Origin: a bacterium
Lineage (GTDB): Bacteria; Patescibacteriota; CPR2; UBA1875; JAJYID01
Reading direction: 5' to 3'
Length of the DNA: 64,000 nucleotides
NCBI GenBank assembly: GCA_021790235.1
Contig: JAJYID010000001.1
Span: 43,131 to 107,130 of the forward strand
The notes beneath the pieces were generated by a model. It saw only the letters and a program-made list of their open reading frames with translations, searched no databases and was not told where the DNA came from. Every line of letters begins with the position of its first letter. Position 1 is the first letter of the stretch. This document shows, in pieces, positions 5,493 through 36,075 of this stretch. The position numbers and the translations under genes are program-made.

Positions 5493-6272
5493 TTATTTTT
5501 TCTTTTTAATTTTCAAATGCTCAAGCACTGTTACTTCTTTATTCATAATCAACCATTGTTGGTAAGCTGCTATACCAGTAGAAGCCGTCCAATATAAAGG
5601 TAGGGCAGCTGGAAGAGTCAATGAAATAAGCAATGTAATCCCCGGAAATATGTAGACCATGTTAGCCATCATTTTTTGCGAGGCATCCTCGGGCTTATCA
5701 GGCGTCATCAGTTTAGTTTGAAGCAGCTGAACACCACCAGCGATAATGGCAAGAATAATATTGGGCTTGGCAAGATCAACCAGACCCAAGAAGCTGGTAT
5801 GGAGTGATCCGTCTGCGACAATAACTGACTTTACAGTCGGGAAATTTTTTACCCAAGCATAGAGCTGTGAAACAAAACTTTTTGAATTATTAGCCACATG
5901 GATAAAGGTCGGATCTTTGAATTTTATAAATACCCAATAGAGACCGATGAGAACGGGCAACTGTAGAAGCGTCGGCAAGCATGAAGAAAAGGGGCTGACT
6001 TCTTTTTCTTTGTAAAGTTCGGCCATTGCTTTTTGCAGCCCTTGAGAATCGTTTTTGTATTTCTTTTTTATTTTCTCAATTTCAGGCTGAATTGCCTTTA
6101 AAGCTTTCTGGTTATACAATGACTTAGCTGAAAGAGGCCAAAGGATTACTCTAAGAATAACTGTGATAGTAATGATAGCTAAACCAAAATCCCAACCCGG
6201 CATAATGCTATAAAGAAGTATCACAAAGTTTAGAAGCGGTTGTGTTATAAATAGATTAAAAATGTTTCCCAT
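5493..6272 (-). CDS. yidC: membrane protein insertase YidC/Oxa1 (short form)
   Basis: Polytopic 259-aa protein in the conserved rnpA-yidD-yidC-jag order, with a basic C-terminus (KKKK). Confidence 0.8.
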   Translation of the reverse strand: MGNIFNLFITQPLLNFVILLYSIMPGWDFGLAIITITVILRVILWPLSAKSLYNQKALKAIQPEIEKIKKKYKNDSQGLQKAMAELYKEKEVSPFSSCLPTLLQLPVLIGLYWVFIKFKDPTFIHVANNSKSFVSQLYAWVKNFPTVKSVIVADGSLHTSFLGLVDLAKPNIILAIIAGGVQLLQTKLMTPDKPEDASQKMMANMVYIFPGITLLISLTLPAALPLYWTASTGIAAYQQWLIMNKEVTVLEHLKIKKKK

Positions 6273-7320: not shown

Positions 7321-8673
7321 ATGGATAATAAAAGCTTATGGCAAGCAGTCCTGGGAGAACTAGAACTAACCTTATCCAAGGCCAACTTCACTACGTGGTT
7401 TCGAGGAACCAATATTATTTCTCAGGAAAAGGGAGAAATTATCATTAGCGTACCTAACGTTTTCACTAAGGAATGGTTGGAAAACAAATATAACTCTAAA
7501 ATAAAAGAAGTCTTAGAGCATATTACCGGCCCTATATCAAAAATTACGTATAAAGTTGGCCAAGTCGAGGCACTCAAAGAAGAGATTCAAGAAGCTGCAA
7601 GCCAAGAAGAGGCTCTAGATTTCGACATCGAAGAAATGCCCGAGGTCTTGGATAGTTTAAACCCTAAATATATTTTCGATAATTTTGTGATTGGAGAAAC
7701 AAACAAGCTGGCTACAGCCGCCTGCCAATCCATAGCTAAAAACCCCGGCAGTGCCTATAATCCTCTTTTTATCTACGGGGGAGTGGGTTTAGGAAAAACT
7801 CATCTTATCCAAGCGATCGGAAATGAAATGAAAAAGAAGAACCCTAAAAAAAGGGTTGAGTACATCACTAGTGAAAAATTTACCAATGAACTTATAAAAG
7901 CAATTTTTGATAAAAAAACTGACGCCTTTAAAAACAAATACAGGAAGGTTGATGTTTTAATAGTTGATGACATACAATTCCTCGGCGGAAAAGAGCAGAC
8001 TCAAGAAGAATTCTTTCACACTTTTAATGCTCTTCATCAATCAAACAAACAGGTGGTTTTAGCTTCAGATAGGCCGCCAAAAGCAATACCCACTCTAGAG
8101 GAGCGCTTGAGGTCTCGGTTTGAGTGGGGTCTACTTGTTGACATTCAGCCTCCCGAGGTTGAAACACGTATAGCTATTTTACAAAAAAAGGCCATTCTGC
8201 GCGGCTACGAGCTTCCGCTTGAAATATATGATTATATTGCCAGAAATATTCAGCACAACGTTCGTGAACTTGAAGGAGCCTTAAATAGAATTATTGCTTA
8301 TGCGGAATTAAACAACAAAAAACCGGACATGACACTAGCCCAAAATGTACTGGGGAGCCTTCTTTCAAATCCAAAAAGAAAAGCGCTCACCGGTAAAAAA
8401 ATTCTCTCTGGCGTTGCCGACTTTTTTGATCTTTCTGTTTCCGATTTAATCAGTAAAAAAAGAGATAAAGAAATAGTTCTGCCAAGACAAATTGCCATGT
8501 ATTTAATGAGAGAAGAGCTAAGCCTTTCCTATCCAAAAATTTCAAGGGAAGCCGGTAAAAATGATCATACTACCGCTATGCATGCTTGTTCTAAAATAGA
8601 AAAGGAAATGGATAAAGACGAACCCCTTAGACATAATATTAATTTAATTCGTGAGAGATTATATATCAGCTAA
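7321..8673 (+). CDS. dnaA: chromosomal replication initiator DnaA
   Basis: AAA+ Walker A GGVGLGKTHL, DnaA domain IV and 450 aa length. GGAG ribosome-binding site 7 nt upstream. Confidence 0.95.
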   Translation: MDNKSLWQAVLGELELTLSKANFTTWFRGTNIISQEKGEIIISVPNVFTKEWLENKYNSKIKEVLEHITGPISKITYKVGQVEALKEEIQEAASQEEALDFDIEEMPEVLDSLNPKYIFDNFVIGETNKLATAACQSIAKNPGSAYNPLFIYGGVGLGKTHLIQAIGNEMKKKNPKKRVEYITSEKFTNELIKAIFDKKTDAFKNKYRKVDVLIVDDIQFLGGKEQTQEEFFHTFNALHQSNKQVVLASDRPPKAIPTLEERLRSRFEWGLLVDIQPPEVETRIAILQKKAILRGYELPLEIYDYIARNIQHNVRELEGALNRIIAYAELNNKKPDMTLAQNVLGSLLSNPKRKALTGKKILSGVADFFDLSVSDLISKKRDKEIVLPRQIAMYLMREELSLSYPKISREAGKNDHTTAMHACSKIEKEMDKDEPLRHNINLIRERLYIS

Positions 8674-8934
8674 ATATGTGGAAAAGATAAGTTTTTTTGG
8701 GGAAAAGGCGTGAAAATATTGATAATAAATATGTGATAATAAAAAATGAAAAAATATTTTTAAACAACAAGTTAATTTCATCCCCATAAAAATAACCTAT
8801 AAAATCCCATAAAAAACACAAGGAAAAATATAAAAAATAAACTTAGAAAATGACTTATAGACAGTTTACACAGACACTATAACTAACTAATACTAAATTT
8901 ATATAAAAAATATCTAATAAGAATGTGAGGAAAA
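8674..8934. promoter_or_regulatory. dnaA-dnaN intergenic AT-rich region; candidate DNA-unwinding element / oriC part 2
   Basis: Extremely AT-rich 260 nt stretch. The same TGTGGAAAA 9-mer occurs at 8677-8685, directly after the dnaA stop codon. Confidence 0.4.
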
Positions 8935-10041
8935 ATGAAAGTTACTCTATTAAAAGAAAATCTATCTAAAGGACTAAATATTATAAGCAGAATAGTCTCA
9001 ACTCGAGGAAGCCTTGAAGTTTTAGGTAATATACTTATTAAAACAGAGAAAGGAAGAGTATGTTTATCAGCTACAAACTTAGAAGTAGGAATAAACTATC
9101 GGATTGGGGCTAAGGTTGATAACGAAGGTGCTATTACTGTTCCTGCCCGGCTCTTTAGTGAATTTGTCAATTCTCTCCCAAATGAAAAGATTACTTTAGA
9201 ACTCGATGGCGATACTCTGATATTAAAATCAGATAATTATGAATCAAATATCAAAGGTATCTCAGCAGATGAATTTCCTTTAATTCCGGAAATAAAAACA
9301 GGTAAAGTGATGGATATAAAATCTTTAGAACTAAGAGATATAATATGTAAAGTAGCTTTCGCAGCAGCTATTGATGATTCTAGACCGGTTCTTGCTGGAG
9401 TATATTTAAAAATCGAAGGCACAAAAGTAACTCTAGCAGCCACAGATAGTTATCGTTTAGCAGAAAAGGTTATTACTTTAAAAAATGGGAAAAGCAAAAA
9501 AGAAGAATTAATACTGCCGGCTAAAACTTTGCTTGAGTTAAGCCGTATTTTAGGTGAAATTAAAAATGATACTTTGGTGAGTGTGTATTTATCAGAAAAT
9601 CAAATACTTTTTGAAACTGACGGACTTGACTTTATCTCTCGCCTTATTGAAGGTCAATTTCCAAATTACCAGCAAATCATCCCGGATAATTCTGATACAA
9701 AAGGCGTTATTAATAAAGACGAGTTTCTTACCGCTGTAAAAATCGCCAGTCTTTTTGCGAGAGAAAACGCTAATAGTATAAAATTATCCATGAAATCTAA
9801 AGGTGTTTTAGAGGTTGATTCCGGAGGTTCTCAGGTCGGACAAAATAAGGCAAAAATTCAGGCAAAGGTCGATGGCCGGGATGGTGATGCATCCTTTAAC
9901 GGAAAATATATTATAGACGTCCTAAATATCTTAAGTGATAAAGAGATAAAGTTTGAGATTAGCGGCAAACTGAACCCGGGAATTGTTAGAACTGTGGGCG
10001 ACAAAGGATATATTTACATTATTATGCCGCTTAGAAACTAG
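8935..10041 (+). CDS. dnaN: DNA polymerase III beta sliding clamp
   Basis: 368 aa, three-domain clamp pattern, positioned after dnaA. Confidence 0.9.
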   Translation: MKVTLLKENLSKGLNIISRIVSTRGSLEVLGNILIKTEKGRVCLSATNLEVGINYRIGAKVDNEGAITVPARLFSEFVNSLPNEKITLELDGDTLILKSDNYESNIKGISADEFPLIPEIKTGKVMDIKSLELRDIICKVAFAAAIDDSRPVLAGVYLKIEGTKVTLAATDSYRLAEKVITLKNGKSKKEELILPAKTLLELSRILGEIKNDTLVSVYLSENQILFETDGLDFISRLIEGQFPNYQQIIPDNSDTKGVINKDEFLTAVKIASLFARENANSIKLSMKSKGVLEVDSGGSQVGQNKAKIQAKVDGRDGDASFNGKYIIDVLNILSDKEIKFEISGKLNPGIVRTVGDKGYIYIIMPLRN

Positions 10042-10164
10042 AATGTGCGCTTTGTACTTGTAAGCTATAATATAGATAAATAATAAGGGATTTTACAGAC
10101 TATTTCATTTTTGTATGGATCTTAATCTTTCATTCTGGATTCATATTTAAAATACTATATTCAA

Positions 10165-11280
10165 ATGTTTATTAATTATTTAAAATTACAAAACTTCCGG
10201 TCATATAAAAGTTTAAATATTAAACTTGATGTAAATACTATTTTTATCGGTTCAAACGCTCAAGGGAAAACTAACCTGCTTGAAGCCATATTTTTGATGA
10301 CAGTTGGCAAATCTTTTCGAGGTAAAGAGCGTGACATGGTTTTTTGGGATAAGGACTTTTTCCGCATTGAAACTAAGTCTGAAAATCCTAGACCGTTAAA
10401 AGTAGAATATATTTATGAATCAGGTGTTGGTGGCGGCAGGAAAACAGTAAAGATAAATGGTGTTAAAAGGGCTAGTTCCGCTCTTTTAGACGGTCTGAAA
10501 TGCATTTTCTTTTCTCCGGATGAGATAGATATGTTTTTTAACTTTCCGGCTGAGAGACGGCGGCATTTTAATATTTTTATTTCTCAAATAAATAAAGAAT
10601 ATGCCAGAGAACTTATTAAATACAGAAAAATTTTGGATCAGCGAAACGCGCTGCTTCGTAAAATCAGTGAAAGAAAGGCAAGTATTGATGATCTGGAGTT
10701 ATGGGATGGAAAGCTGGCTGAACACGGCTCAAAAATTATTAGCGAAAGACACAAAATAGCAGATGAGCTAAATAAAACCTTGGTATGTGACTATAAAAGG
10801 GTGTCAAAAGATAAAGAACAGCTGGCACTTATCTATAACCCGGCAATATCTAGTAAAAAAAGCGCCAAGGAAAATGAAGATTTTTGGGCTGCTTTTCTAG
10901 AGATTCTTTTGAAATCCAGAGAAAGGGACTTAGCGGCTAAGGTTACTACTTCTGGCCCTCACAGGGATAATTTTTCATTCCAGTTAAAAGGTAGAGGCGT
11001 GGAGACTTTTGCTTCCAGAGGAGAGCTACGTTCTATTATTTTGGCCCTAAAGCTATCTGAGGCCAATCTTTTGAGAGAAAAAACAGGAGAACAACCAATT
11101 TTACTGCTCGATGATGTTTTTAGTGAGCTAGATGAAGATAGAAGGGAGCATTTGACCAAAACTTTTAATGGCCAGCAAACTCTGGTGACTACCAATGACT
11201 TAGATCATATTAGCGTCGATTTACGAAAAAGTTCTAGAATTTTCAAAGTGGAAGACAGCAAAGTAGAGGAACTTAAATGA
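10165..11280 (+). CDS. recF: DNA replication/repair protein RecF
   Basis: Walker A GSNAQGKTNLLEA, ABC signature and Walker B LLLDDVFSELD. Confidence 0.9.
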   Translation: MFINYLKLQNFRSYKSLNIKLDVNTIFIGSNAQGKTNLLEAIFLMTVGKSFRGKERDMVFWDKDFFRIETKSENPRPLKVEYIYESGVGGGRKTVKINGVKRASSALLDGLKCIFFSPDEIDMFFNFPAERRRHFNIFISQINKEYARELIKYRKILDQRNALLRKISERKASIDDLELWDGKLAEHGSKIISERHKIADELNKTLVCDYKRVSKDKEQLALIYNPAISSKKSAKENEDFWAAFLEILLKSRERDLAAKVTTSGPHRDNFSFQLKGRGVETFASRGELRSIILALKLSEANLLREKTGEQPILLLDDVFSELDEDRREHLTKTFNGQQTLVTTNDLDHISVDLRKSSRIFKVEDSKVEELK

Positions 11281-11561
11281 ATAATCTGGGTGATGTTTTT
11301 GAAAAAAAGCTGGCACAGCTTAGGATAAAAAAACAAATTAACGCCGCACTTATTTGTGAAGCGTTTGATAAGGCCGTCGCAGAAGTTTTCGGAGAACAGG
11401 GAGCTAAAAACGTGAAAGCCATTTCATATAAAAACAACACTTTGAAGGTTGGGGTATCATCAAGTGTTTGGGCGAGTGAGATTAATCTCAGACAACTTGA
11501 ATTGGCAGAAGATAGGAGTATGAGGTTTATATATAAGCAAGATTTACATTACCTAAGGTAA
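11277..11561 (+). CDS. DUF721 / DciA-like protein
   Basis: 94 aa ORF overlapping the recF stop by an ATGA junction. DUF721 proteins, the DciA helicase-loader family, typically sit next to dnaN-recF. Confidence 0.5.
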   Translation: MNNLGDVFEKKLAQLRIKKQINAALICEAFDKAVAEVFGEQGAKNVKAISYKNNTLKVGVSSSVWASEINLRQLELAEDRSMRFIYKQDLHYLR

Positions 11562-12058
11562 GCGGGGGTATCCCACACGATGTTTATATTTGGGTCATGG
11601 GGGTCAATACCTGTGTTTTTTAATAAATTTAAAATTTTGTCTTTATAAATTGAGGTTGGGGTTTTCAAGAAAGTTACAAAGAGAGAATTATTTATATTAT
11701 AAAGATTATAATCATTTGTTTTAATGGGCAAAGTGTCGAGAAATTTATTAAATTTTTCAACATTTGGGTCTATTAGTGTAAATTTTAAAGCGGTGTCATT
11801 TTTAAGATCCACCTCCTCATTTACTTCAGAATAACCAGCCTTAGTGATTTTCACCATATGTTTTCCGGAATTTAGCTTAAAATAAGTTGGAGACTGGCTA
11901 CTGGTTTGATTATCGATTGTTACTTTTGCATCAGATGGCTGGGTTGTTATGTAAAATTTAAACTTCTTAGGGACAAGAAAGTAAATCAAAAAACAACCAA
12001 CAATAATCATAATAATTATGAGGATGATGAATTTAAACTTGTCTATTAGTTGATGCAT
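11549..12058 (-). CDS. membrane-anchored PEGA-like domain protein
   Basis: N-terminal transmembrane helix (IILIIIMIIVGCFLIYFLV) followed by a beta-rich PEGA-like segment (AKVTIDNQ...GKHMVKITKAGYSEVNEEVDL). Confidence 0.45.
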   Translation of the reverse strand: MHQLIDKFKFIILIIIMIIVGCFLIYFLVPKKFKFYITTQPSDAKVTIDNQTSSQSPTYFKLNSGKHMVKITKAGYSEVNEEVDLKNDTALKFTLIDPNVEKFNKFLDTLPIKTNDYNLYNINNSLFVTFLKTPTSIYKDKILNLLKNTGIDPHDPNINIVWDTPAYLR

Positions 12059-12082
12059 TTGAATATATTAAAATATAGGTTT

Positions 12083-14650
12083 TTATTTTTTACAACTAAA
12101 GGCATCTCCGTAACCATTATTATTTAAATAGTTGAGAGGCATTGAGTAAGTTTTGGTCATACTGGTATGGTTGTTATTATCAGAAGAGGGTGAGTACTTT
12201 TCAAGGTAAGCATCAAATGATAGTGGACCCGCTTTACACTCTGTGCATGATCCGTTTGGATTTACATAAACATCGTATATGTAAGCTGCCTGTCCGTAAA
12301 GGCTGTCCTTCCAGCTTGCGTAACTATACCATTTCCTCCCATTTACCATACAGCCTGGTTGACTTGCAGTTGCAGTTCTTCCGAAAGCATTATGACCTTC
12401 AGCGCAAGGAATGGCTGTGCCTAAAGATGATTCTGTCATTGCTTCTCCAATAAGTATTAAAGGGTTGATATTGTTTTCTTGAGCAGCTTGAACAAAATCC
12501 AACCCCATGCCTTTATATGGGGAGTCGATACCGGTACTTTCTATAAAAGCATTGATACCCTGAGCCATTTTATCTGGGTCAGTAATATTTGCTGAACCGC
12601 CCGCCGGTGATAAGCAATCAGGCCCGGCTTCACCACTTCCTCCACATTTCAAATCCTTATCTGCCAAAGAAACTAGGCCTGACATAATATTGATAAACTT
12701 TTCTTCATTTAGGGTGTTGCCATTGAGTACATTCCACTTTCTCACAAATCCTATGTCGTACTGGTCTTCTATGAAAATGAGGTTCGATAGATCTATGGAG
12801 TTAGCTAAAGACCCAAGACCTTGGGTGTCTCCACCCAAGGAGTGGATAGTATAATCCTGCGCATAAGTGTCTTTTATTCTCTCTGCTTCGTTGTAAACCA
12901 TGGCTTCATCCATCTTGTGTTGGGGATTGAACTCATACCAAAGACCACCTTCACGATCAGCGCAAGTAGGGATTTTTATCTCATCTTTTAAGGGTCGGTT
13001 AGGGTCAATAGGTGGTTTTTGCTTCCAAGGGTTCCCGCAGTCAAGTATGGCTGGATCGCTAAGTGTCCCCATGTTAGTAGTTGCACCTGAGATTGCTAAA
13101 AGTATCAGCGGATTAATTTGTTCTCCTCCATCAAGTTCGCTGGCACTCACAAAAAGCGCCCCGGGATCATTCCCGTTTAGGTGGTTAAAAGGTGAAGTTG
13201 GATACTTCTGTTTCAAATATTTATTAATGGCATCAATAAGTTCAAGACGATTTTGTCCTGATGTAGGAGCATCTTTTGCCTTGCTTTCTTCAAAATCTAC
13301 TCCCCACATACCCATACAGCCCATTCTTGCCTCAAGTTTTGTATATTGGTCGCAATATTTGCAAATGTTTGAGTTTAATAAACATATCTGGTTAGATGTG
13401 TTAGAGTTGGATGTACTTGACGGAAGACCTGTTCTTATATCGTTTAGTTTGCTATACAAATTAGTACCAGGACAGGATGTATTATTCATATCTGTATGTG
13501 CTCCATCGTGATTGTCATCGATATTTCCACAACCACTGCCTGTGCATTTATAGTCCTTATGCCCGGCGATATTGGGGCTAGAGATTGTTGGATGTCCCTC
13601 TGTCCCCGGGAATGCGTCGTTGCCTTGAAGATCAATATGGTATGTTTCATTTAACCAAAGAATGAGATTTCTTGCTGCAGCCATACTTGCTTCACTGGGC
13701 TCGGCATTTTCATAATTTCCCATAATGGCTATTCCAATACTTCCGACGTTGTAGCCCTTAGTATGCCCCCCGACTACATTCATACCACCGGCACGACCTT
13801 CATAAATATTACCCTGCTTGTCTATTACATAGTTGTAACCAATATCTCCCCAGCCCCTTTTAATATGTTCCTGCCAGATACCCCGCATGTCTGCTTTCGG
13901 GTCGTTTGTTGTAGTTGAAGCAGTATGATGGATAATGTATTTTTTAGCCGGTGAGTACTGAGGGGCCCAGTTAGGTGATGATTCGCCATCAGGGCAACCC
14001 CAATCAGTCCTGGAAATAATATGGGGGCTTTGCGGATTATCAGCGTTTGCGATCGGAAAAATCAATAGTCTGCCCAAAAAACTTTCAACCTTTTTTAAAA
14101 TGCCGCTTCTGGTATCCATGTAGTAGAGATTTATATTTTTCAGTATCGGGCTTAAACTTGTGTTAGAAGTTTTAAGCACAATTTTATATTGGATCTGGTT
14201 ACCGGTATAGAAAAATGGGGCTTCAGGGCTTAGTTTTTGATTTGCAGTTCCATCTTTTTCTCCGGTATCCCCTTCTATTTTTTGCCAGTTGCTCCATTTG
14301 CCGTTCTCCCCCAGTCTTAGATATAATTCTAAGCTTGTACCTTGGGGTGTTTCTTGTTGCCAGTATGGAGCCACCCCACTGAATTCAAAACTGGTGGTAA
14401 AGACTTTTGATTTGTATATTCTCTCAGGGTTAAAAGACCCGGCGGCATTTTTATCTAGAGAAATATTTTTATCTGTTTGGTCTTCTTTTATGGTTGATGT
14501 TTTGAAGACTTTAGTGGATGTTTGAGTAGAAGAAGCAGTTTTCTGTTGTTTCGTTTTAATGAAAGAAAGGCCTGTGGCAACAGCCAATAAGAAAAGTGCC
14601 AAGAGGACGGAGGTAAACATTAAAAATCTTTTTTTTGATGTTATTTCCAT
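12083..14650 (-). CDS. secreted multidomain peptidoglycan hydrolase (Amidase_2/PGRP domain + GH73 glucosaminidase-like domain)
   Basis: N-terminal signal/transmembrane segment. Central region YIIHHTAS...GWGDIGYNYVIDKQGNIYEGRAGG...GGHTKGYNVGSIGIAIMGNY is an Amidase_2/PGRP fold. The C-terminal region INPLILIGEAMTESSLGT...HNAFGRTA...YSYASWKDSLYGQAAYI follows the FlgJ/GH73 pattern. A Cys-rich linker separates the two. Confidence 0.6.
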   Translation of the reverse strand: MEITSKKRFLMFTSVLLALFLLAVATGLSFIKTKQQKTASSTQTSTKVFKTSTIKEDQTDKNISLDKNAAGSFNPERIYKSKVFTTSFEFSGVAPYWQQETPQGTSLELYLRLGENGKWSNWQKIEGDTGEKDGTANQKLSPEAPFFYTGNQIQYKIVLKTSNTSLSPILKNINLYYMDTRSGILKKVESFLGRLLIFPIANADNPQSPHIISRTDWGCPDGESSPNWAPQYSPAKKYIIHHTASTTTNDPKADMRGIWQEHIKRGWGDIGYNYVIDKQGNIYEGRAGGMNVVGGHTKGYNVGSIGIAIMGNYENAEPSEASMAAARNLILWLNETYHIDLQGNDAFPGTEGHPTISSPNIAGHKDYKCTGSGCGNIDDNHDGAHTDMNNTSCPGTNLYSKLNDIRTGLPSSTSNSNTSNQICLLNSNICKYCDQYTKLEARMGCMGMWGVDFEESKAKDAPTSGQNRLELIDAINKYLKQKYPTSPFNHLNGNDPGALFVSASELDGGEQINPLILLAISGATTNMGTLSDPAILDCGNPWKQKPPIDPNRPLKDEIKIPTCADREGGLWYEFNPQHKMDEAMVYNEAERIKDTYAQDYTIHSLGGDTQGLGSLANSIDLSNLIFIEDQYDIGFVRKWNVLNGNTLNEEKFINIMSGLVSLADKDLKCGGSGEAGPDCLSPAGGSANITDPDKMAQGINAFIESTGIDSPYKGMGLDFVQAAQENNINPLILIGEAMTESSLGTAIPCAEGHNAFGRTATASQPGCMVNGRKWYSYASWKDSLYGQAAYIYDVYVNPNGSCTECKAGPLSFDAYLEKYSPSSDNNNHTSMTKTYSMPLNYLNNNGYGDAFSCKK

Positions 14651-14659
14651 TTTTTACTT

Positions 14660-15250
14660 TTAAAATTTGTTATCGTAAACCCAATTTATTTTTAAACTTT
14701 GAGGATCGGCCGCCCCATGGTCGCTAAACCACTTGTACACTTCTGCTTTTGACTGCGCCTCACGTTCCCTGAAAATATAAACATGCATTGTCCCATCTTC
14801 ATAAGGTGCACTTATATAGTAGTCTTTTGCTTGGACAGGCAGCTGGGATGCATACGGATATGCATCGTTATAATCATTAACCTTTTTTGCAACTTCAGCT
14901 GGACTTTGCATATAACCTCCCCCTGTTCCTATTGCTTCAGGGGGGAGGATCGAGAGAGAGTAGTTTAGACTGACAGATTTTTTTAGAGGAGCAATTGAAA
15001 ATGAAGTTTTCAGGTTTTTATAGTCTTTGTGTGATATTTCAATGTTGAAAGTTCCTGATTTAAGTTCAATAGTGGCAGGTGTTTTGCCGGTGATATCTCC
15101 TATCTTAAAACTTGCTGACGATGGAGAGGAGATAATAGTCACCTTTTTCTTTGTCTGGCCTTCTAAAAATAAAAGTATTAAAAGGAAGCATATAAGAGTT
15201 ATGCTGATTAAAGAGGCAATAATAATGAATTTCTTATTATGGGTGTACAT
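14660..15250 (-). CDS. membrane-anchored PEGA-like domain protein
   Basis: N-terminal transmembrane helix followed by a PEGA-like segment (ASFKIGDITGKTPATIELKSGTFNIEISHKDYKNLK). Paralogous in architecture to the 11549..12058 protein. Confidence 0.45.
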   Translation of the reverse strand: MYTHNKKFIIIASLISITLICFLLILLFLEGQTKKKVTIISSPSSASFKIGDITGKTPATIELKSGTFNIEISHKDYKNLKTSFSIAPLKKSVSLNYSLSILPPEAIGTGGGYMQSPAEVAKKVNDYNDAYPYASQLPVQAKDYYISAPYEDGTMHVYIFREREAQSKAEVYKWFSDHGAADPQSLKINWVYDNKF

Positions 15251-16814
15251 AAAAATATGCTCCGCTTGGATCTATGCTTTGTAAATGGCTGACAGTGATA
15301 ATATATGGGTCGGGGCCGTTTGGGTATGGATCATTGACGGTAATATTGTCACCCTTTTTTGAGTCCAGCACAATAAAGTGGCCGCCATACATATTAGTTG
15401 AAGCGATGATCGGTTCGTTCCCTTTCTCTATGCGTTGCATGGCTTCACTAAATCCGATTTGTGATGAACCCATATTGTAGTATTTACTTGCAACATCAGG
15501 GAATAAGCTCCATTTAGACCCCCCGTCTACTTCATTTAAAGCTACGCCTTGTTTAGCTACCTGTCCGGGGTCAGTATTTTGGCCGTAATATGCTAGGACC
15601 ATAGCCAAAGAAGTCGGGCCACAACCCCATGCACACACAGTGGCACCATATGTGTTATTTGCCCATCTTGGATCGCATTGACTAAAAAGTGGGACCTTAC
15701 TTAATGGGCTACCCGGATTCGGAGAAGCGCTTGGGTTGCGGAAAAGATCCTCAAGTGAACAAGCTGTATTATAACCCTCGGTAGATGTTTCATTTTTATA
15801 CCAGCCCAAAACTCCCAGACGATTTCTATATCCATCAGCATCGAAGCCGTCCCAGAGCCAATGACTATTATTGTAATAGTCAAATTTATCTTTTAGATAT
15901 CGATCGGTGAAACATTGCTCTTGTGATTCCTTTTTAACGTACAAACAATGGTAGTTGCTAATGTATTCTTCGGCAATGCCCACGGGATATTGGCCATCAG
16001 GCCTTATTTTGTTTTGATAATTTCCATCCTCATCAGGTATAAGTTTACCGCTAGGGTCTCTTAGGGCATTGGCTGTTTGAAGCTCTTGGCCAATTTTTTC
16101 TAAGCGGTCTTTTACGTTACCCTGCCCTCCCACATCTTCCATAAAACAGTCATAGCAGTTTTGGAGCCCCGCATCTTCTATGTTGCGAAAATCTATGGCT
16201 GCGATCATTTCCCAGGGTACGCCAGTTTTCTGGCCTGCTTTTCTGACTACTCTACCATAACATCCAGCATCATTATTGCCTTCATCAAGGGTTTTTGTTA
16301 CAACCTTCCCTTCCTTATTATGGGTTGTGATGACACCTGAAGTTTTGAGAGCATCTTCAGACCATTGAGGAATCTGAGTAACTGTACATATATTATTGGA
16401 GTTTCCCGGGCCCTTACCTCCAAATACGTTATAAACTTTAGAAGCGGCACCTGTCACAACGTCTATAGTATAATGTTTGAACATTCCGATTGTACCTTCC
16501 ACTAGCGCAAAGGGGCCAAAAATTATCGGTACCCATATCGAAACAATTATACTTAAGATGATGGCACCGCCTAAAATAATTTCTACCCATCTTCTTCTAA
16601 TGACCTCCAGCGCATTTTTTACAGCCCCGAAAACATTGCCTTCAGCGGCCTCGGCAGCAGCCATTCCGGCTTGTGCAACATCTGCGCCAACTTTACCCCC
16701 GGCTTTTTCACCAACTTCTCGAGCCTTATTACCGGCTGTATCCCCTGAGGCAATTGGGTTTTTCCCTTTCTTTCTGAGTTTCCGCAGATTTTGATCGTCA
16801 TATGTATTTGCCAT
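15237..16814 (-). CDS. VirB1-like membrane-anchored cell-wall hydrolase (C39-like/CHAP-like papain-fold peptidase domain)
   Basis: Single transmembrane helix around residues 80-110. The C-terminal domain motif QCDPRWANNTYGATVCAWGCGPTSLAMVLAYYG ... GGHFIVL has the Cys/His arrangement of Peptidase_C39_2 / CHAP cell-wall hydrolases. Its position next to VirB4 is typical of T4SS-associated hydrolases. Confidence 0.5.
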   Translation of the reverse strand: MANTYDDQNLRKLRKKGKNPIASGDTAGNKAREVGEKAGGKVGADVAQAGMAAAEAAEGNVFGAVKNALEVIRRRWVEIILGGAIILSIIVSIWVPIIFGPFALVEGTIGMFKHYTIDVVTGAASKVYNVFGGKGPGNSNNICTVTQIPQWSEDALKTSGVITTHNKEGKVVTKTLDEGNNDAGCYGRVVRKAGQKTGVPWEMIAAIDFRNIEDAGLQNCYDCFMEDVGGQGNVKDRLEKIGQELQTANALRDPSGKLIPDEDGNYQNKIRPDGQYPVGIAEEYISNYHCLYVKKESQEQCFTDRYLKDKFDYYNNSHWLWDGFDADGYRNRLGVLGWYKNETSTEGYNTACSLEDLFRNPSASPNPGSPLSKVPLFSQCDPRWANNTYGATVCAWGCGPTSLAMVLAYYGQNTDPGQVAKQGVALNEVDGGSKWSLFPDVASKYYNMGSSQIGFSEAMQRIEKGNEPIIASTNMYGGHFIVLDSKKGDNITVNDPYPNGPDPYIITVSHLQSIDPSGAYFYVHP

Positions 16815-18625
16815 TACTCTTCCTCATATTCTTCCTCAAGTTCTTTTAACTGCTCAGGGTCTGTAGTTACAAGCTCGTCTTCTGTTTCAGAACGGATGAC
16901 TTGTATAATAGCGTGGTTAAGACCGGCAATAAAGAGCCCCTCTCCTGTTTCACAGCTAAGCAGAAAGTTTCTCTCCGCATCAGTAAGGTCAAAGACTTCT
17001 TTAATTAAATCTGCTTGAGACGGGTGTTGTTTTAAGAGCAGTGATAAGGAGGCATTTGATATTAGAGGCTTGCCGTACTCGCTTTTTAGAAAATCTCCTA
17101 TATCCTGGCCAATTACAGTTGTGCCAAGATAATATTTTCTTCCCCTTTTTGCCACAGAATATAAAAACTGCGCAGAGTCTTCATATTTCATGAGCATCCA
17201 GGCCTCGTCGACCACTAAAAGGCGCTTCCTTTTATCACTTTTTACCTTGGTCCAGATGAAGTTTAAGGTAGAATACATAGCGATCGGACGCAGATCTTCT
17301 TCAAGGTCGCGGATGGAGAAACAGACAAAACGATTTGCTAGTGATACATTTGTATAATCATTGAAAAGTCCTGAAAAAGTACCGTCTGTAAACTTATTTA
17401 GCCTTAAGGCCATACTTTCACCTCCCGGCATACTTTCTAGTACGTTTTTTAGATCAGACATCAGTGGTGGGGTCAGGTGGTGGGTTGCAGGGTCTTCAGT
17501 AATGCCTTTTGCGGCATAAGTCTCGACTAAAGCTTTGTCTAAAATGTTTTTTTCTTCATCTGTAAGGTCTCCGAGCATTACTCTCAAAAGTCCGTTTAAT
17601 ATAATTATATTGCTGCGAAGAGCATCTCGCTGATCCTCGAAGTCAGAGACATTTTGGGGAAGATCAAAAGGGTTCAATATTTGTTCTGAGTTTAGATGGA
17701 TGTTAATGTATGAACCACCAACCGCCTCACAAAGTTCTTCAAACTCCTTTTCGGGGTCGATCACAATAGCATCAGCATCAAACATCAGTTGTCTGAGAAT
17801 CTCAAGTTTTGCCGCATAGGATTTACCAGCGCCCGATGTAGCGAGGATGACTGAATTATAGTTTTGCAGCTTAAAACGATCAAAAATAATTAGACTGTTA
17901 TTAATCTTGTTTGCACCGTAGAGAATTCCTTCATTGTTTGTAAGGGTGGAGGAAACAAAAGGAAAAGATACAGAGACTGCTTCAGTGTCCATATTTCTAT
18001 TTATAGAAAGTTCATCTTTACCCATGGGCAGACAAGTGTTAAAACCTTGTTCCATCTGAAGGTTTGCATGTTTAGTAAAGACCATATGGATGCCAAAAAG
18101 ATTTTCTAAGCTTTGAGTATCTTCATTTAACTTATCAAGGCTGTCGGCATATATTGTTACATAGATACCTTGCTGAAACATCTTTGCCAGACCGGTAGTG
18201 ATATTGTCCCTTAAATCTTCAATATCGGCGTAAGTTGCCTCGAGAAATGGGTTGCGAGTCAGGCCTTTCTCTGCCTCCATGACTAGAGATGATTCAACTT
18301 GTGAAGACTTAGATCTCAGCTTCTTTAGGGTTGACTCGGTATTTTGTGGATAGATATGCATCGAAAGATCTAAAATAATATCCACATTTATAATTTCAGA
18401 AAGCCAGCCAGAGTTTAAAAAACGAGGATATTCATAAACGAAAAGGGTCCTGGCGAAGGTATCGCCCAGTTTAATATAATCAAAAGTCACTTCAAAAGAT
18501 GAGGGCGATATCATATCACGAATGGACATTATACCGGCACGAAATGCTTGCATCTGATTTTGCTTTTGAATTTCCTCAGGCGTTAAAGGCTGTTTCTTTT
18601 TGATTAAAAAATCTAAAATACTCAT
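16814..18625 (-). CDS. VirB4/TrbE-family T4SS ATPase, C-terminal (ATPase) portion
   Basis: Walker A ILATSGAGKSY and Walker B RLLVVDEAWMLM. The N-proximal FEVTFDYIKLGDTFARTLFV motif is typical of Gram-positive-type VirB4 homologues. Confidence 0.8.
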   Translation of the reverse strand: MSILDFLIKKKQPLTPEEIQKQNQMQAFRAGIMSIRDMISPSSFEVTFDYIKLGDTFARTLFVYEYPRFLNSGWLSEIINVDIILDLSMHIYPQNTESTLKKLRSKSSQVESSLVMEAEKGLTRNPFLEATYADIEDLRDNITTGLAKMFQQGIYVTIYADSLDKLNEDTQSLENLFGIHMVFTKHANLQMEQGFNTCLPMGKDELSINRNMDTEAVSVSFPFVSSTLTNNEGILYGANKINNSLIIFDRFKLQNYNSVILATSGAGKSYAAKLEILRQLMFDADAIVIDPEKEFEELCEAVGGSYINIHLNSEQILNPFDLPQNVSDFEDQRDALRSNIIILNGLLRVMLGDLTDEEKNILDKALVETYAAKGITEDPATHHLTPPLMSDLKNVLESMPGGESMALRLNKFTDGTFSGLFNDYTNVSLANRFVCFSIRDLEEDLRPIAMYSTLNFIWTKVKSDKRKRLLVVDEAWMLMKYEDSAQFLYSVAKRGRKYYLGTTVIGQDIGDFLKSEYGKPLISNASLSLLLKQHPSQADLIKEVFDLTDAERNFLLSCETGEGLFIAGLNHAIIQVIRSETEDELVTTDPEQLKELEEEYEEE

Positions 18626-18653
18626 TTTTTATTGCTAACAACTTTATAATTTA

Positions 18654-19379
18654 TCAAATATTGTTCTCCACATCTTCTCTTTTAGAAATATATTGCGCCC
18701 CTAGCTGATCCAAATGTTTTATATGTTCATGTCCGGCAGTTTCGGGATTATAACAAGCATAAAAAAGTTCTATTAAGGCTTCTGTGGGCAAAGGTGTGGA
18801 AGTGAGCCCAACTTCTGCTAAGGTGGACATTGTGACTTCTGCCCTTTGTCGCAACTGTTTCAAACCATTTTCATAACTTTCATTCGTTGCGCTTGGATGG
18901 CTCGTCTTTTTTAGCCCTAAGTATGAAAGTAGACCTTTTGAGCTGCTCTCAAGCACATTTGGATAATAAGGAACAATAACAAAGAATCTTTTGTCCATTA
19001 CATTCACACTAGACAGGATGTCTTCTAGAAAGTCTATATAATCTTCGGTTTGTTCTTTTAAGAGAGAATTTTTTTGTTTTGTTGCCTCTTTTTTTAGTGT
19101 GGCAAGGTAAGAAGTGAGGTCGACTTTTCTAGATTGAACTAGAAACTGAAGAGGGAAGCTCACGGAATTTAGGGCGCTTTCATACATATCCATAACGGTG
19201 TTTTGTTCTTCTTCGGAACGAAGTGCCAGATTTATGCTAGAAACCATGATGACTACATGGAGTGAACCATCTTTTAGAATCAAGGTGTCGTCTTTGATTT
19301 GATCAATTTCCAAAAATCTTTGAGTGCTCTCAAAGTGTTGTTTATTGCTATGTGTTGATTTTTTGTTGAAAGGGAACAT
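18654..19379 (-). CDS. VirB4-family N-terminal domain protein (separate ORF; split or frameshifted virB4)
   Basis: 241 aa with a VirB4 N-domain-like pattern (FLEIDQIKDDTLILKDGSLHVVIMVSSINL...). It ends 28 nt upstream of the ATPase ORF in a different reading frame. The two ORFs together total 844 aa, the size of a full VirB4. Confidence 0.5.
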   Translation of the reverse strand: MFPFNKKSTHSNKQHFESTQRFLEIDQIKDDTLILKDGSLHVVIMVSSINLALRSEEEQNTVMDMYESALNSVSFPLQFLVQSRKVDLTSYLATLKKEATKQKNSLLKEQTEDYIDFLEDILSSVNVMDKRFFVIVPYYPNVLESSSKGLLSYLGLKKTSHPSATNESYENGLKQLRQRAEVTMSTLAEVGLTSTPLPTEALIELFYACYNPETAGHEHIKHLDQLGAQYISKREDVENNI

Positions 19380-20029
19380 TATTCTTCTTCTATTTTATAG
19401 CCAGTTATATCCGGTTTTTTATAATTATATTTTTTTGCCGGGTTTATGGATGCCATTTCTGAGATAAGAGGCTCTTTCCCTGGCTGTTTTGCCTCGACTT
19501 TCTTTCGAGCATCTTCAAGGCTTTGGTCAATCACGGCATCTCCTTTGTCAAAAACTGTTTCTGCTTTTATTTCATTTACTTTATTTTGTAAGCCGTAAGC
19601 TCCACCGGTGTCTACCATGAGGGATATTTTTTCTATTTCTCCTTCCGCGTTTTCAAGAGGTGCCTTTGGTGGCAAGTTTTGCCCCTGTATGGTATCAGAT
19701 TTTACCTGATCTGTCTGTGGCTTTGAACCTTGATCATTTTCTTTTTTCCAGACTCTCTGCCTCGGTTTTGAAATAAAAATGGCAAAAGGGATAATGTGGG
19801 TATAAACAGGCCTGCCATTATAAGGTACAAAACATATTAGAAGAGAAAAAGATCCGAAAAAGGCTCCGATTATTACTGCAGTTATAGTAGACATACCAAG
19901 ATTCATAAGAAGCGCCATGACTATTACGGTGACTACAACAGCGACAAAGACAAAACCAAACTGTTTTAAGGTGAATGGCCCTATAATTTTGTCTTCAACG
20001 TTCATTTCTTGGGGTATTTTATGCTGCAT
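19379..20029 (-). CDS. VirB3/PrgI-like small T4SS membrane protein
   Basis: N-terminal KIIGPFTLKQFGFVFVAVVV plus a second transmembrane helix fits the PrgI-family hallmark. It sits directly upstream of virB4. Start and stop codons abut the neighbouring genes. Confidence 0.5.
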   Translation of the reverse strand: MQHKIPQEMNVEDKIIGPFTLKQFGFVFVAVVVTVIVMALLMNLGMSTITAVIIGAFFGSFSLLICFVPYNGRPVYTHIIPFAIFISKPRQRVWKKENDQGSKPQTDQVKSDTIQGQNLPPKAPLENAEGEIEKISLMVDTGGAYGLQNKVNEIKAETVFDKGDAVIDQSLEDARKKVEAKQPGKEPLISEMASINPAKKYNYKKPDITGYKIEEE

Positions 20030-20035
20030 AACTTA

Positions 20036-33362: not shown

Positions 33363-33452
<90 letters not shown>

Positions 33453-33475
33453 TTGATATGATATCATTGAGCCGT

Positions 33476-33568
33476 GGTGAGGTACCCAAGTGGCTGAAGG
33501 GGCGGGTTTGCTAAACCTGTAGGTCGGAGTTTTCCGGCGCGAGAGTTCGAATCTCTCCCTCACCGCCA
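33476..33568 (+). tRNA. tRNA-Ser (anticodon GCT)
   Basis: Acceptor GGTGAGG/CCTCACC, anticodon loop TTGCTAA, long variable arm, GTTCGAATC T-loop, 3' CCA. Confidence 0.8.
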
Positions 33569-33789
33569 GATAAAAGTTTGAGACCATTTGCTATTTTTTT
33601 TAAGTTCAAAGTCTTGGAATTTCTTCTCTGCTCTTATTGTTAGCCGTTTTTTTAGATATACATCCAAGATAAAAATTTAACTCAAAAACAGGCCGTTTAG
33701 GGTATGGAGTCTCTAAAAAAGATTTTGAAGAGATTGTCTTTTTTACTGTAGATAATTATAATTTAATAAGATCTTAATATAAAATAAAA

Positions 33790-34437: not shown

Positions 34438-34451
34438 ATAAGTTTCTATAT

Positions 34452-34542
34452 GGTGAGGTGGCCGAGTGGCTTAAGGCGCACGCTTGGAAAGCGTGTAAGC
34501 CCCACAAGGGCTTCCAGGGTTCGAATCCCTGTCTCACCGCCA
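34452..34542 (+). tRNA. tRNA-Ser (anticodon GGA)
   Basis: Anticodon stem CACGC/GCGTG, loop TTGGAAA, long variable arm, T-loop GGTTCGAATCC, 3' CCA. Confidence 0.8.
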
Positions 34543-34597
34543 GTTTAAAGTCATTAAATTACTATTAATTCGAAGAACAAAAGAGTATAATTAGATT

Positions 34598-35359: not shown

Positions 35360-35421
35360 TTTGATTGTCTTAAATATTTGTTAGGGCTAAAATAAACCGT
35401 AAACTTTTTTCACGGTATGAT

Positions 35422-36074: not shown

Positions 36075-36075
36075 T

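Follow-up and report, generated by a model that had tools for sequence, protein, structure and literature searches.

The VirB1-like hydrolases of monoderm T4SSs are multi-domain, membrane-anchored proteins: PrgK combines LytM, muramidase and CHAP domains and TraG combines SLT and CHAP domains, and the CHAP and LytM domains of PrgK are reportedly regulatory, not lytic (PMC12857230). PrgK (pCF10), TraG (pIP501), Orf14 (Tn916) and CwlT (ICEBs1) are encoded beside virB4, in operons of the PrgI/VirB4/VirB6 type. In Southlakia epibionticum, all genes after virB4 (SEML1_0004-0007) scored as essential by Tn-seq (Wang 2023, PMC10633639). SEML1_0005 is a PEGA protein, SEML1_0006 combines GH73, phage tail lysozyme and Cys protease domains, and SEML1_0007 has a DD-peptidase fold (PMC10633639); it has been proposed by Quinonero-Coronel et al. 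that the SEML1 genes replace VirB1 (PMC12102498). Their essentiality does not tell which wall is cut. Peptidoglycan hydrolases linked to a T4SS also occur among the X-Tfe effectors of Xanthomonas and Stenotrophomonas, which act in contact with another bacterium. These substrates are cytoplasmic and carry at the C-terminus an XVIPCD signal that VirD4 recognises; each is paired with a specific immunity lipoprotein (X-Tfi). Finally, staphylococcal Atl is a housekeeping cell-separation enzyme in which GW/SH3b-type wall-binding repeats separate the domains; in Atl and AtlE, Amidase_2 is followed by GH73.

Here we describe a four-gene module from a 64,000-nt stretch of DNA, referred to as the window, of a Saccharibacteria-like bacterium. 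The four genes are probably the cell-wall-remodelling end of a Saccharibacteria-type, monoderm-like T4SS operon. Wall-hydrolase modules of this kind are already known, being essential in the cultivated relative S. epibionticum; the combination of amidase, pseudo-GH73 and GH73 is new, and occupies a slot that varies between close relatives.

The module lies on the minus strand, where the genes after virB4 encode, in order, a 525-aa protein, a PEGA protein (PEGA_B), an 855-aa protein and another PEGA protein (PEGA_A) (Table 1). The run from virB4 to the last PEGA gene is a single tightly packed operon adjoining dnaA-dnaN-recF. Reading of the junctions showed that virB4 ends and the 525-aa gene begins within a shared TAATG, that the last 14 nt of the 525-aa gene also belong to PEGA_B, and that the remaining gaps within the module are 9 nt and 24 nt. 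Upstream of the module, VirB4, a TraC/TrsD-like protein, PrgI, VirB6 and three VirB2-like T4SS pilins are encoded; no T4CP gene was found among the scanned operon genes, from virB4 to the pilins and beyond. PEGA_A is the final gene of the operon and is convergent with a DciA-like gene. The first-pass annotation had described two large hydrolases embedded in a T4SS cluster; both ORFs are present, at the distal end of the operon beside dciA/recF and not in its middle. A hydropathy scan gave one N-terminal TM segment in each of the four proteins. Genes for a FemAB-family protein and a Mur ligase are also present in the window, which indicates that the organism builds a wall of its own that the machine must cross.

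Table 1. Coordinates of the T4SS-linked module genes and of the domains of their products in the window
Feature	Position	Strand	Basis
VirB4-like ATPase	16814..18625	-	Pfam P-loop_TraG (E 8.5e-24), AAA_10, CagE_TrbE_VirB
525-aa membrane-anchored protein, mid domain + C39_2 peptidase	15237..16814	-	ORF
525-aa protein, aa 1-109, tail + TM helix	16488..16814	-	Hydropathy scan
525-aa protein, aa 135-372, conserved predicted extracellular mid domain	15699..16412	-	Motif TGVPWEMIAAIDFRNIEDAGLQN
525-aa protein, aa 373-525, Peptidase_C39_2 papain-fold domain	15240..15698	-	Pfam, E 5.4e-13
PEGA_B, 196 aa	14660..15250	-	Pfam PEGA, 28.8 bits
855-aa multi-domain hydrolase	12083..14650	-	ORF
855-aa protein, aa 6-34, signal-anchor or Sec signal peptide	14549..14635	-	Hydropathy scan
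855-aa protein, aa 50-180, beta-sandwich domain	14111..14503	-	AF2, all-beta, pLDDT >90
855-aa protein, aa 205-410, Amidase_2/PGRP-type N-acetylmuramoyl-L-alanine amidase	13421..14038	-	Pfam, PDB matches, fold
855-aa protein, aa 425-665, degenerate GH73-like domain	12656..13378	-	hhalign, BLASTP, residue alignment
855-aa protein, aa 686-855, GH73 glucosaminidase-type domain	12086..12595	-	Pfam Glucosaminidase
PEGA_A, 169 aa	11549..12058	-	Pfam PEGA, 42 bits, E 8.6e-11

Five full-length homologues of the 525-aa protein were found (44-53% identity), every one encoded directly after virB4. Its Ala/Gly/Lys-rich N-terminal tail of ~74 aa leads, through RRR, into the sole TM-like segment (aa 75-109), and by the positive-inside rule the topology is read as N-in, with a cytoplasmic tail. 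The mid domain had no match in Pfam, PHROG, NCBIfam or PDB, and is rare: when 1.84 billion representative proteins were searched with a profile, 23 matches reached E<=0.001, and spurious matches to cadherin-repeat proteins make up at least six of these. Seven genuine matches were scanned; six carry C39_2 and one, P0134, has NlpC/P60 in its place. As its fold is unassigned and an invariant Glu is absent, glycan cleavage of the SLT/muramidase kind found in TraG and PrgK is unproven for this domain. The AF2 model is unreliable over the mid domain and most of the protein; the C39_2 part (pLDDT 64-84) resembles the C39 domains of PCAT1, ComA and 3erv. Of the earlier label of a C39/CHAP-like peptidase, the papain-fold C39_2 half holds (Pfam match over aa 373-497), and the CHAP half had no match in the protein. 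The catalytic residues Q379, C398 and H479 are present and, together with D489, invariant across six homologues. In P0132, C39_2 is fused to a GH73 domain.

The 855-aa protein, which the source assembly likewise calls as one protein of 855 aa, has only two full-length homologues among the proteins found, P0001 (46% identity) and P0002 (40%). AF2 models its N-terminus as a helix (aa 2-39), and a low-complexity Ser/Thr/Lys spacer extends to ~aa 70. In the beta-sandwich, W119, W122 and Q154 are nearly invariant across 49 family members; its structure weakly resembles those of phage tail and VriC proteins, and it is possibly wall-binding. The prediction that this protein joins an Amidase_2/PGRP-type amidase to a GH73 glucosaminidase was borne out, both Pfam domains scoring above cut-off: Amidase_2 over aa 233-376 (E 3.8e-18, 66.5 bits against 26) and Glucosaminidase over aa 719-821 (E 5.6e-8, 33.9 bits against 30.2). 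Sequence matches of the amidase in PDB are PGRPs and T7 lysozyme, and its fold matches PGRP-LB (TM 0.78) and the LysC amidase (TM 0.86). Conservation places the complete catalytic set, zinc ligands included, at H241/H242, Y272, H364, T391 and C393. The AF2 model of the GH73 half is poor; here the assignment follows HMM and residue alignment, with 6fxo ('Bifunctional autolysin') among the matches. In the alignment, E740, within MTESS, falls on E116 of S. aureus AtlA-gl (6fxo); E116 has been proven to be the catalytic Glu (PMC7170848). YSPSSD stands for the YA(S/T)D motif.

The region between the two enzymes, previously taken for a Cys-rich linker, is instead a conserved domain of ~250 aa opened by a conserved Cys cluster. 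An hhalign comparison with the C-terminal GH73 domain identifies it as a paralogue of the latter (98% probability, E 1.4e-13, 108 columns), and BLASTP self-similarity via P0132 ties the two together as well. T524 replaces the catalytic Glu, and the same position reads T/T/T/S/S in five homologues.

Both small proteins exceed the Pfam PEGA cut-off of 20.8 bits. PEGA_A consists of a TM anchor and a PEGA domain; PEGA_B has a TM anchor (aa 5-34), a PEGA domain and a C-terminal domain of ~95 aa, and was found in six of seven compared relatives (32-62% identity), the contig of the seventh (L008) stopping before the gene. In 7 of 9 related loci the gene after that for the C39_2 protein encodes a PEGA protein, regardless of the hydrolase type that comes next; in L012 and L013 a 191-aa equivalent of PEGA_B is without a Pfam match on record. 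A PEGA protein closes the module in four relatives as well. Because they are kept whatever the hydrolase type, the PEGA proteins look like scaffolds or structural subunits and not like cognate immunity proteins; of the two roles suggested in the first-pass annotation, scaffold is thus favoured over immunity.

Gene order is constant in the nine related loci, running virB4, mid+C39_2 protein, small (mostly PEGA) protein, hydrolase and small PEGA/TM protein, with dciA-recF-dnaN-dnaA downstream; its recurrence in orthologues from independent assemblies shows that the arrangement is not due to chance. The hydrolase slot holds an amidase+GH73 fusion, GH73 alone, SLT, NlpC/P60+SLT, or an unassigned 'HYRE' domain, in relatives whose VirB4 and DnaA are 75-87% and 83-87% identical. 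Even among three orthologues of the 855-aa type the C-terminal glycosidase domain differs. Such fast turnover is not obviously expected if only the organism's own, conserved wall is cut. Fast divergence is also seen in other extracytoplasmic components of the T4SS (VirB6 32-47%, PrgI 44-57% identity). One slot (L007) holds the pseudo-GH73+GH73 half without the amidase, so the amidase has been added to a protein linked to the T4SS. As for the beta-sandwich+Amidase_2 half, it is a member of a large family in Patescibacteria, Chloroflexi and Anaerolineae; the two members whose context was examined, P0003 and P0010, sit among glycosyltransferase/envelope genes, not T4SS genes.

In gene position and domain content, on which the likeness rests, the module resembles that of S. 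epibionticum ML1: both lie directly after virB4, adjoin recF-dnaN-dnaA, and encode large exported multi-domain wall hydrolases that include GH73 and a papain-fold cysteine protease, together with two PEGA/prealbumin-like small proteins. The distribution of domains differs. ML1 has a 643-aa GH73/phage tail lysozyme/Cys protease protein and a 1113-aa DD-peptidase-fold protein, and is without Amidase_2, whereas in the window one protein unites Amidase_2, pseudo-GH73 and GH73 and the other pairs the novel mid domain with C39_2. Like PrgK, TraG, Orf14 and CwlT, the 525-aa protein is a multi-domain protein with a predicted N-terminal cytoplasmic stretch, a single TM helix and a C-terminal papain-fold cysteine peptidase. 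Unlike those systems, the window has no detectable SLT, muramidase, LytM or CHAP domain, its peptidase is a C39_2, amidase and GH73 are supplied by a separate second protein, and VirB2-like pilins are present, with no relaxase or coupling protein nearby. Monoderm VirB1-like hydrolases are required for crossing the thick wall, a trait that the window proteins would share. The earlier inference that this is far more lytic capacity than a VirB1 needs used the wrong yardstick, as monoderm T4SSs normally carry multi-domain hydrolases (PMC12857230), and the T4SS hydrolases at the same positions in S. epibionticum are even larger.

The 855-aa amidase shares its fold (TM 0.78-0.86) and the full His, Tyr, His, Thr, Cys catalytic set with catalytic PGRPs (PGRP-LB of Drosophila), T7 lysozyme and phage amidase endolysins. 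It differs from this group in a Cys-containing insertion of ~22 aa (~aa 367-388) between the second His and Thr/Cys, and in being part of a multi-domain protein. As in Atl/AtlE, amidase precedes glucosaminidase in a single exported polypeptide, with the GH73 catalytic Glu aligned. The amidase-GH73 fusion is also the architecture of a housekeeping autolysin, an observation that runs against a role in T4SS wall remodelling. Several features set the protein apart from Atl: a dead GH73 copy forms the spacer, the N-terminus has an extra beta-sandwich, the gene is part of a T4SS operon, and sequence similarity is weak (PDB E 0.8, GH73 part).

By comparison with PrgK, TraG and CwlT, we consider it fairly likely that the module is the T4SS's own wall-remodelling set. 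The 525-aa protein probably fills the PrgK/TraG role of Gram-positive conjugation systems: its cytoplasmic tail and membrane helix would tether it to the machine, and its extracellular mid domain and papain-fold cysteine peptidase would act on the wall. The 855-aa protein would be an Atl-like multi-enzyme whose amidase removes stem peptides from MurNAc and whose C-terminal GH73 domain cleaves glycan strands; binding of peptidoglycan and positioning of the two active domains would most likely fall to the beta-sandwich and the dead GH73 copy. The two PEGA proteins would serve as scaffold or structural subunits anchored in the membrane. Acting together, the four proteins would make a local opening in the organism's own wall for passage of the channel and the VirB2-like pilus. 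It is plausible that the same enzymes also cut the host wall, at tight epibiont-host contact. Intact catalytic residues in the amidase, the C-terminal GH73 and C39_2, and the wall-enzyme company kept by C39_2 (the NlpC/P60 swap and the GH73 fusion), argue for wall remodelling, as do the shared operon with virB4, the constant gene order, the single N-terminal TM segment of each protein, the organism's own wall synthesis, and the precedents in S. epibionticum and in monoderm T4SSs.

A mainly host-directed role, the idea of the first-pass annotation, overlaps with this explanation and is possible, though on the doubtful side. Enzymes released or exposed at the contact site would cut the host bacterium's peptidoglycan so that the pilus or channel reaches the host membrane, or so that wall fragments (GlcNAc, MurNAc, amino acids) serve as food, and the variable slot would track host wall chemistry. 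The switching of slot type among relatives so similar in VirB4 and DnaA, and the differing glycosidase domains of the 855-aa type, fit this, as do an AVA-TG motif at the 855-aa N-terminus, where a Sec signal peptide could be cleaved, the inability of TM7x to make UDP-GlcNAc, thought to be obtained from its host, and the thickening of that host's wall in stable symbiosis. However, the 855-aa N-terminal segment is a single TM-like stretch in the hydropathy scan, with no sign of release, and VirB6 and PrgI also diverge fast, so rapid change is not specific to the hydrolases. With no coupling protein or effector-type secretion signal nearby, delivery via the T4SS itself is unlikely.

Three further alternatives are less likely. 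In one, which concerns the 525-aa protein only, C39_2 might process proteins and not peptidoglycan, either maturing the VirB2-like pilins, three of which are encoded in the operon, or splitting an 855-aa pro-enzyme into amidase and glucosaminidase, as in Atl. Among solved structures, the closest in fold to C39_2 belong to double-glycine leader peptidases (PCAT1, ComA, LahT), and PrgK offers a precedent in its reportedly regulatory CHAP and LytM domains (PMC12857230). We nevertheless think this unlikely, since NlpC/P60, a wall endopeptidase family, replaces C39_2 beside the same mid domain, C39_2 is fused to GH73 in P0132, an ABC-transporter partner is absent, and no double-glycine leader is evident on inspection of the pilin sequences. 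That the 855-aa protein is a housekeeping autolysin for daughter-cell separation or budding, near the T4SS by genomic accident, would suit its Atl-like order and the large beta-sandwich+Amidase_2 family with its two envelope-gene contexts, yet is very unlikely given a gene flanked by two conserved PEGA genes within a tightly coupled operon, a wall hydrolase in the exact same post-virB4 slot in every related locus examined, and the amidase-less pseudo-GH73+GH73 half in L007. Scarcely credible is a set of toxin-immunity pairs on the model of X-Tfe/X-Tfi in the bacteria-killing T4SS of Xanthomonas, a reading to which the small membrane-anchored protein gene after each hydrolase gene might point. 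Unlike X-Tfe, the window hydrolases have Sec-type N-termini and so do not qualify as cytoplasmic substrates of a T4SS, no T4CP gene lies next to them or was found among the scanned operon genes, and the small partners do not co-vary with enzyme type, the PEGA proteins being retained where the hydrolase changes completely; in S. epibionticum, PEGA is present and essential beside unrelated hydrolase domains.

The open reading frames, coordinates and Pfam-type assignments of the first-pass annotation proved correct on ORF calling and Pfam searches, and plus-strand ORFs within the genes for the 855-aa and 525-aa proteins (e.g. 12900-13511) were treated as shadow ORFs. Both hydrolase genes lie near the end of a long minus-strand operon, which runs from the pilin genes to the gene for the 169-aa PEGA protein and converges on the plus-strand dnaA-dnaN-recF-dciA genes. 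The virB4 stop and the start of the 525-aa gene share the sequence TAATG, the 525-aa gene overlaps the gene for the 196-aa PEGA protein by 14 nt, and the other gaps at the operon end are 9 nt (after the 196-aa gene) and 24 nt (after the 855-aa gene). Scans for internal regulatory sites found consensus promoters and terminators at chance level. The closest genomes were uncultured Candidatus Saccharibacteria MAGs, with VirB4 at most 87% identical.

Features of the window discussed in the text, with window coordinates
Feature	Coordinates	Strand
dnaA	7321-8673	plus
dnaN	8935-10041	plus
recF	10165-11280	plus
Small DciA-like gene	11277-11561	plus
PEGA protein, 169 aa	12058-11549	minus
855-aa protein	14650-12083	minus
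PEGA protein, 196 aa	15250-14660	minus
525-aa protein	16814-15237	minus
VirB4	18625-16814	minus
TraC/TrsD-like protein	19379-18654	minus
PrgI/VirB3	20029-19379	minus
VirB6/TrbL	21679-20036	minus
Three VirB2-like T4SS pilins	24149-21752	minus
Charged proteins, 225 and 529 aa	24214-26484	minus
T2SSE/PilB-type ATPase	31681-33300	minus
Five tRNA genes among small ORFs	33363-36164	
CdaA-type diadenylate cyclase	36687-37949	minus
B12-binding radical SAM protein with DUF4070	41485-42984	minus
FemAB-family protein, Mur ligase, phosphoglucomutase/phosphomannomutase-family protein	44807-48559	plus

The whole T4SS operon abuts dnaA-dnaN-recF-dciA, the replication origin region (7321-26484 for the two together), as it does in all relatives; placement of the T4SS beside dnaA has already been described for Patescibacteria (PMC12102498). 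The three pilin genes are in tandem and encode T4SS_pilin proteins of 118, 299 and 363 aa, the two longer ones having large Cys-rich N-terminal extensions ahead of the pilin domain. The two charged proteins encoded upstream of the pilins have a coiled-coil look by eye and no Pfam match, and may be further T4SS components.

The 855-aa protein begins with a single hydrophobic segment (aa 6-34, hydropathy scan), predicted to act as a signal-anchor or as a Sec signal. Its AF2 model, built on a 49-sequence alignment, was good for aa 50-410, and most of aa 413-855 stayed under a pLDDT of 50. A beta-sandwich at aa 50-180 (pLDDT >90), common to a large amidase family in Patescibacteria, Chloroflexi and Anaerolineae, precedes the amidase domain, which was modelled at aa 205-410 with pLDDT of about 90. 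Amidase_2 (PF01510) matched at aa 233-376, scoring 66.5 bits (cut-off 26; E 3.8e-18), and PHROG endolysin and amidase families also matched the protein (E 1e-25 to 1e-11). Foldseek searches with the amidase model returned PGRP-LB, which is catalytically active (E 2.4e-11, TM 0.78), and the phage amidase LysC (TM 0.86). The residues H241/H242, Y272, H364, T391 and C393 were each conserved in at least 90% of 49 family members. All the amidase catalytic residues named beforehand as a check are in place: the His, His and Cys that bind Zn, together with the catalytic Tyr and the Thr, make up the complete set found in active amidases of the PGRP/T7-lysozyme type, and cleavage of the MurNAc-L-Ala bond is the predicted activity. 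From phmmer coordinates we take H242 to be the counterpart of the first Zn-ligand His of T7 lysozyme. Between H364 and T391, inside the Zn-binding loop, is a Cys-containing insertion of about 22 aa (YKCTGSGCGNIDDNHDGAHTDMNN; aa 367-390, window 13481-13552), which is also present in the full-length homologue P0001, is shorter and without Cys in the homologue P0002, and does not occur in the wider family. A 55-aa fragment is the representative of the 90%-identity cluster to which the 855-aa protein belongs, so the full-length sequence, though present in the protein collection, is missing from the homology-search matches.

The region between the amidase and the C-terminal glucosaminidase had been described as a linker, a description that does not hold. 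Residues 425-665 are conserved in P0001, in P0002 and in the shorter proteins at the same position in two related loci (L006 and L007), and are paralogous to the C-terminal GH73 domain (hhalign 98%, E 1.4e-13, 108 columns). The position of the catalytic Glu is occupied by T524, and by T, T, S and S in four homologues; as a Pfam search also gave no match for this region, it was classed as a degenerate, probably non-catalytic GH73 copy, which may bind or position.

The C-terminal domain (aa 686-855) matched GH73 (PF01832) by a narrow margin, 33.9 bits against 30.2 (E 5.6e-8), and was aligned by hhalign with 96% probability to the GH73 domains of P0001 and of the slot proteins of loci L009 and L007. 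In alignments, E740 (within MTESSLG) falls on E116 in S. aureus AtlA-gl (6fxo) and on the equivalent Glu of 5wqw. E116 of AtlA-gl is the proven general acid, E116A being inactive (PMC7170848). The GH73 catalytic Glu that had likewise been named as a check is thus present, and E740 is the candidate general acid of the predicted domain. At the position of the substrate-binding motif YA(S/T)D the protein has YSPSSD, which keeps the Tyr and an acidic residue with different spacing; the counterparts are YAPPSEN and YSPASD in the closest relatives, and YATDPNW and YAEDPDW in another subtype. In the AF2 model most of aa 739-855 had pLDDT below 50, and the first helices alone reached 66-79.

The 525-aa protein consists of a tail of about 74 aa rich in Ala, Gly and Lys, one TM helix (aa 75-109, hydropathy scan), a conserved mid domain (aa 135-372) and a Peptidase_C39_2 domain (PF13529, aa 373-525; 50.2 bits against 24, E 5.4e-13). 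In its AF2 model, which had a mean pLDDT of 45 on a 6-sequence alignment, only the C39_2 domain was usable (pLDDT 64-84), and this matched PCAT1, ComA and 3erv with TM 0.45-0.66. Q379, C398, H479 and D489 were invariant in six homologues. Of the earlier label "C39/CHAP-like", the papain fold and C39_2 are borne out, while CHAP (PF05257) gave no Pfam match at E<=0.1. Similarity to the classical bacteriocin-processing C39 peptidase (PF03412) is at fold level only, and the protein has no ABC transporter domain. The C39_2 domain is probably extracellular, since the single membrane helix precedes it in the sequence.

No match to the mid domain was found in Pfam, PHROG or NCBIfam, nor in a profile search of the PDB at E<=10. 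Searching 1.84 billion representative proteins with a mid-domain profile gave 23 matches at E<=0.001. At least 6 of these were spurious cadherin-repeat proteins: all three multi-repeat giant proteins scanned had cadherin repeats and matched over a 45-residue stretch only, and such proteins were treated as spurious. Among seven genuine matches scanned, six carried C39_2 and one NlpC/P60. GVPWEMIAAIDFRN, a motif of the mid domain, is similar to GVPWQxLxAxHYRE, which occurs in the C-terminal domain of both P0002 and the L006 protein; the hhalign match to this 'HYRE' domain spans only 24-55 columns at 30-35% probability, and the putative link is a lead. The motif itself, G(V/I)PWQxLxA(L/I)H(Y/F)RE, was observed in P0002 (L003, about 9600-10115) and in a 431-aa protein (L006, about 5720-6211). 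The 'HYRE' domain had no Pfam match and a PDB search was empty; it may be an undescribed wall-hydrolase family.

Nine related loci were compared with the window (L001/L004, L003, L005-L009, L012/L013 and L016), some of whose contigs end before the later genes. All nine had a constant order: virB4, the mid-domain and C39_2 protein, a small protein of about 190 aa, a hydrolase slot, a small PEGA or TM protein, and dciA-recF-dnaN-dnaA. The content of the slot varied. The window, L003 and L004 carry Amidase_2, pseudo-GH73 and a C-terminal glycosidase-like domain; L007 has pseudo-GH73 with GH73, L006 pseudo-GH73 with the unknown 'GVPWQ...HYRE' domain, L009 GH73 alone, L012 SLT_2, and L005 NlpC/P60, an unknown region and SLT. 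The three amidase-bearing orthologues have C-terminal domains of three different types. Since the amidase half of the 855-aa protein resembles family members outside T4SS loci, its architecture looks like a lineage-specific fusion of a PGRP-type amidase onto a pseudo-GH73/GH73 protein. Identity among relatives was 75-87% for VirB4 and 83-87% for DnaA, and other extracytoplasmic T4SS proteins also diverge fast, so rapid sequence change is not unique to the hydrolases, whereas domain turnover is. Two loci had genes of other kinds, which we regard as selfish or defence-type insertions in or beside the T4SS operon: in L012 (4615-6128) T4SS genes are interrupted by GIY-YIG and 23S_rRNA_IVP/bAvd genes, and in L001 (8027-9528) an AbiEii toxin gene separates dciA from the last PEGA gene.

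PEGA (PF08308; cut-off 20.8 bits) was matched by both small proteins of the window, with 42.0 bits for the 169-aa protein and 28.8 bits for the 196-aa protein. In 7 of 9 loci the small protein encoded next to the C39_2 gene was a PEGA protein; in L012/L013 it had no Pfam match on record. PEGA proteins are kept beside GH73, NlpC/P60 plus SLT, and amidase-type hydrolases, and do not co-vary with enzyme type. This pattern speaks against the first-pass suggestion that they may be immunity partners, and the view of the hydrolases and PEGA proteins as toxin-immunity pairs of the X-Tfe/X-Tfi type is accordingly disfavoured, the PEGA proteins persisting whatever the hydrolase.

A comparable module is found in S. 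epibionticum, whose T4SS cluster is essential for epibiotic growth (Wang et al. 2023, PMC10633639). There, virB4 (SEML1_0008) is followed by SEML1_0007, a 1113-aa protein with a DD-peptidase fold (PMC10633639, supplementary tables), SEML1_0006, a 643-aa protein combining GH73, phage tail lysozyme and a cysteine protease, SEML1_0005, a PEGA protein, and SEML1_0004, a prealbumin-like protein, and all four genes score essential (PMC10633639). By analogy with these same-position genes, which offer indirect support, the hydrolases of the window may be required for T4SS function. In Patescibacteria a canonical VirB1 is seldom found linked to virB4, and peptidase and lysozyme homologues have been suggested as its replacements (Quinonero-Coronel et al. 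2025, PMC12102498). Multi-domain TM-anchored hydrolases such as PrgK, TraG and Orf14 are standard parts of monoderm T4SSs (2025 review, PMC12857230). The 525-aa protein is like the PrgK/TraG class in its T4SS operon, beside virB4, in its predicted N-terminal cytoplasmic part with a TM anchor, and in its position, kept in nine loci. Unlike VirB1, TraG and PrgK, neither hydrolase had a detected SLT or muramidase domain (no SLT or lysozyme profile match in Pfam, PHROG or NCBIfam); as the mid domain also had no fold match, both were treated as functional analogues of PrgK/TraG and not as family members. Modules of this kind are already known; in the T4SS literature cited there is no description of this combination of domains, of a dead GH73 copy, of the rare mid domain or of a cassette-like slot.

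Elsewhere in the window, three consecutive genes encode a FemAB-family protein, a Mur ligase and a member of the phosphoglucomutase/phosphomannomutase family that may be GlmM. The organism therefore builds its own peptidoglycan, which probably carries interpeptide bridges, and because of the FemAB-family protein and Mur ligase the T4SS has an own wall to cross.

The explanation we favour, and consider probable, is that these genes are a module of the T4SS dedicated to wall remodelling. The hydrolases would be anchored at the T4SS machine, where the amidase would remove stem peptides and the GH73 domain cleave glycan; the papain-fold peptidase of the 525-aa protein might trim peptides or regulate, and the PEGA proteins would be scaffolds. 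For the C39_2 domain a wall-related role is our best guess, given the swap for NlpC/P60 in the related protein P0134, the fusion to GH73 in P0132 and the GH73/lysozyme/cysteine protease fusion of S. epibionticum; a protein-processing role is a minor alternative, as is a housekeeping Atl-like autolysin for the 855-aa protein.

That the enzymes act on the wall of the host, to penetrate it or to feed, is a possibility to which we give clearly less weight, and it overlaps with wall remodelling. It draws on the turnover of slot content and on the fact that Saccharibacteria are known to depend on wall precursors from the host. The first-pass observation of two large wall hydrolases in the T4SS-like cluster stands, and its interpretation is partly supported; use against a partner cell's wall is plausible. 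More speculative still is that the slot is a swappable cassette matched to host peptidoglycan chemistry. The T4SS-linked hydrolases would then determine host range by breaching the host wall for a pilus or channel, and the dead GH73 copy and beta-sandwich would be modules that recognise this wall.

The T4SS of Saccharibacteria was the first for which essentiality to the bearer was demonstrated, and wall hydrolases after virB4 belong to the essential set. To this the locus adds a constant slot with enzymes exchanged between close relatives, one lineage with a complete PGRP-type amidase fused to a pseudo-GH73/GH73 protein, and a protein right after virB4 with a rare domain of no known fold. Defined catalytic residues, constructs and site mutants, with the variable slot, make the choice between own wall and host wall testable, and slot content is a genomic marker that can be compared with host range.

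Elsewhere in the window, the T2SSE/PilB-type ATPase, next to which the five tRNA genes lie, probably serves type IV pili. The genome that carries the B12-binding radical SAM and CdaA-type diadenylate cyclase genes appears reduced.
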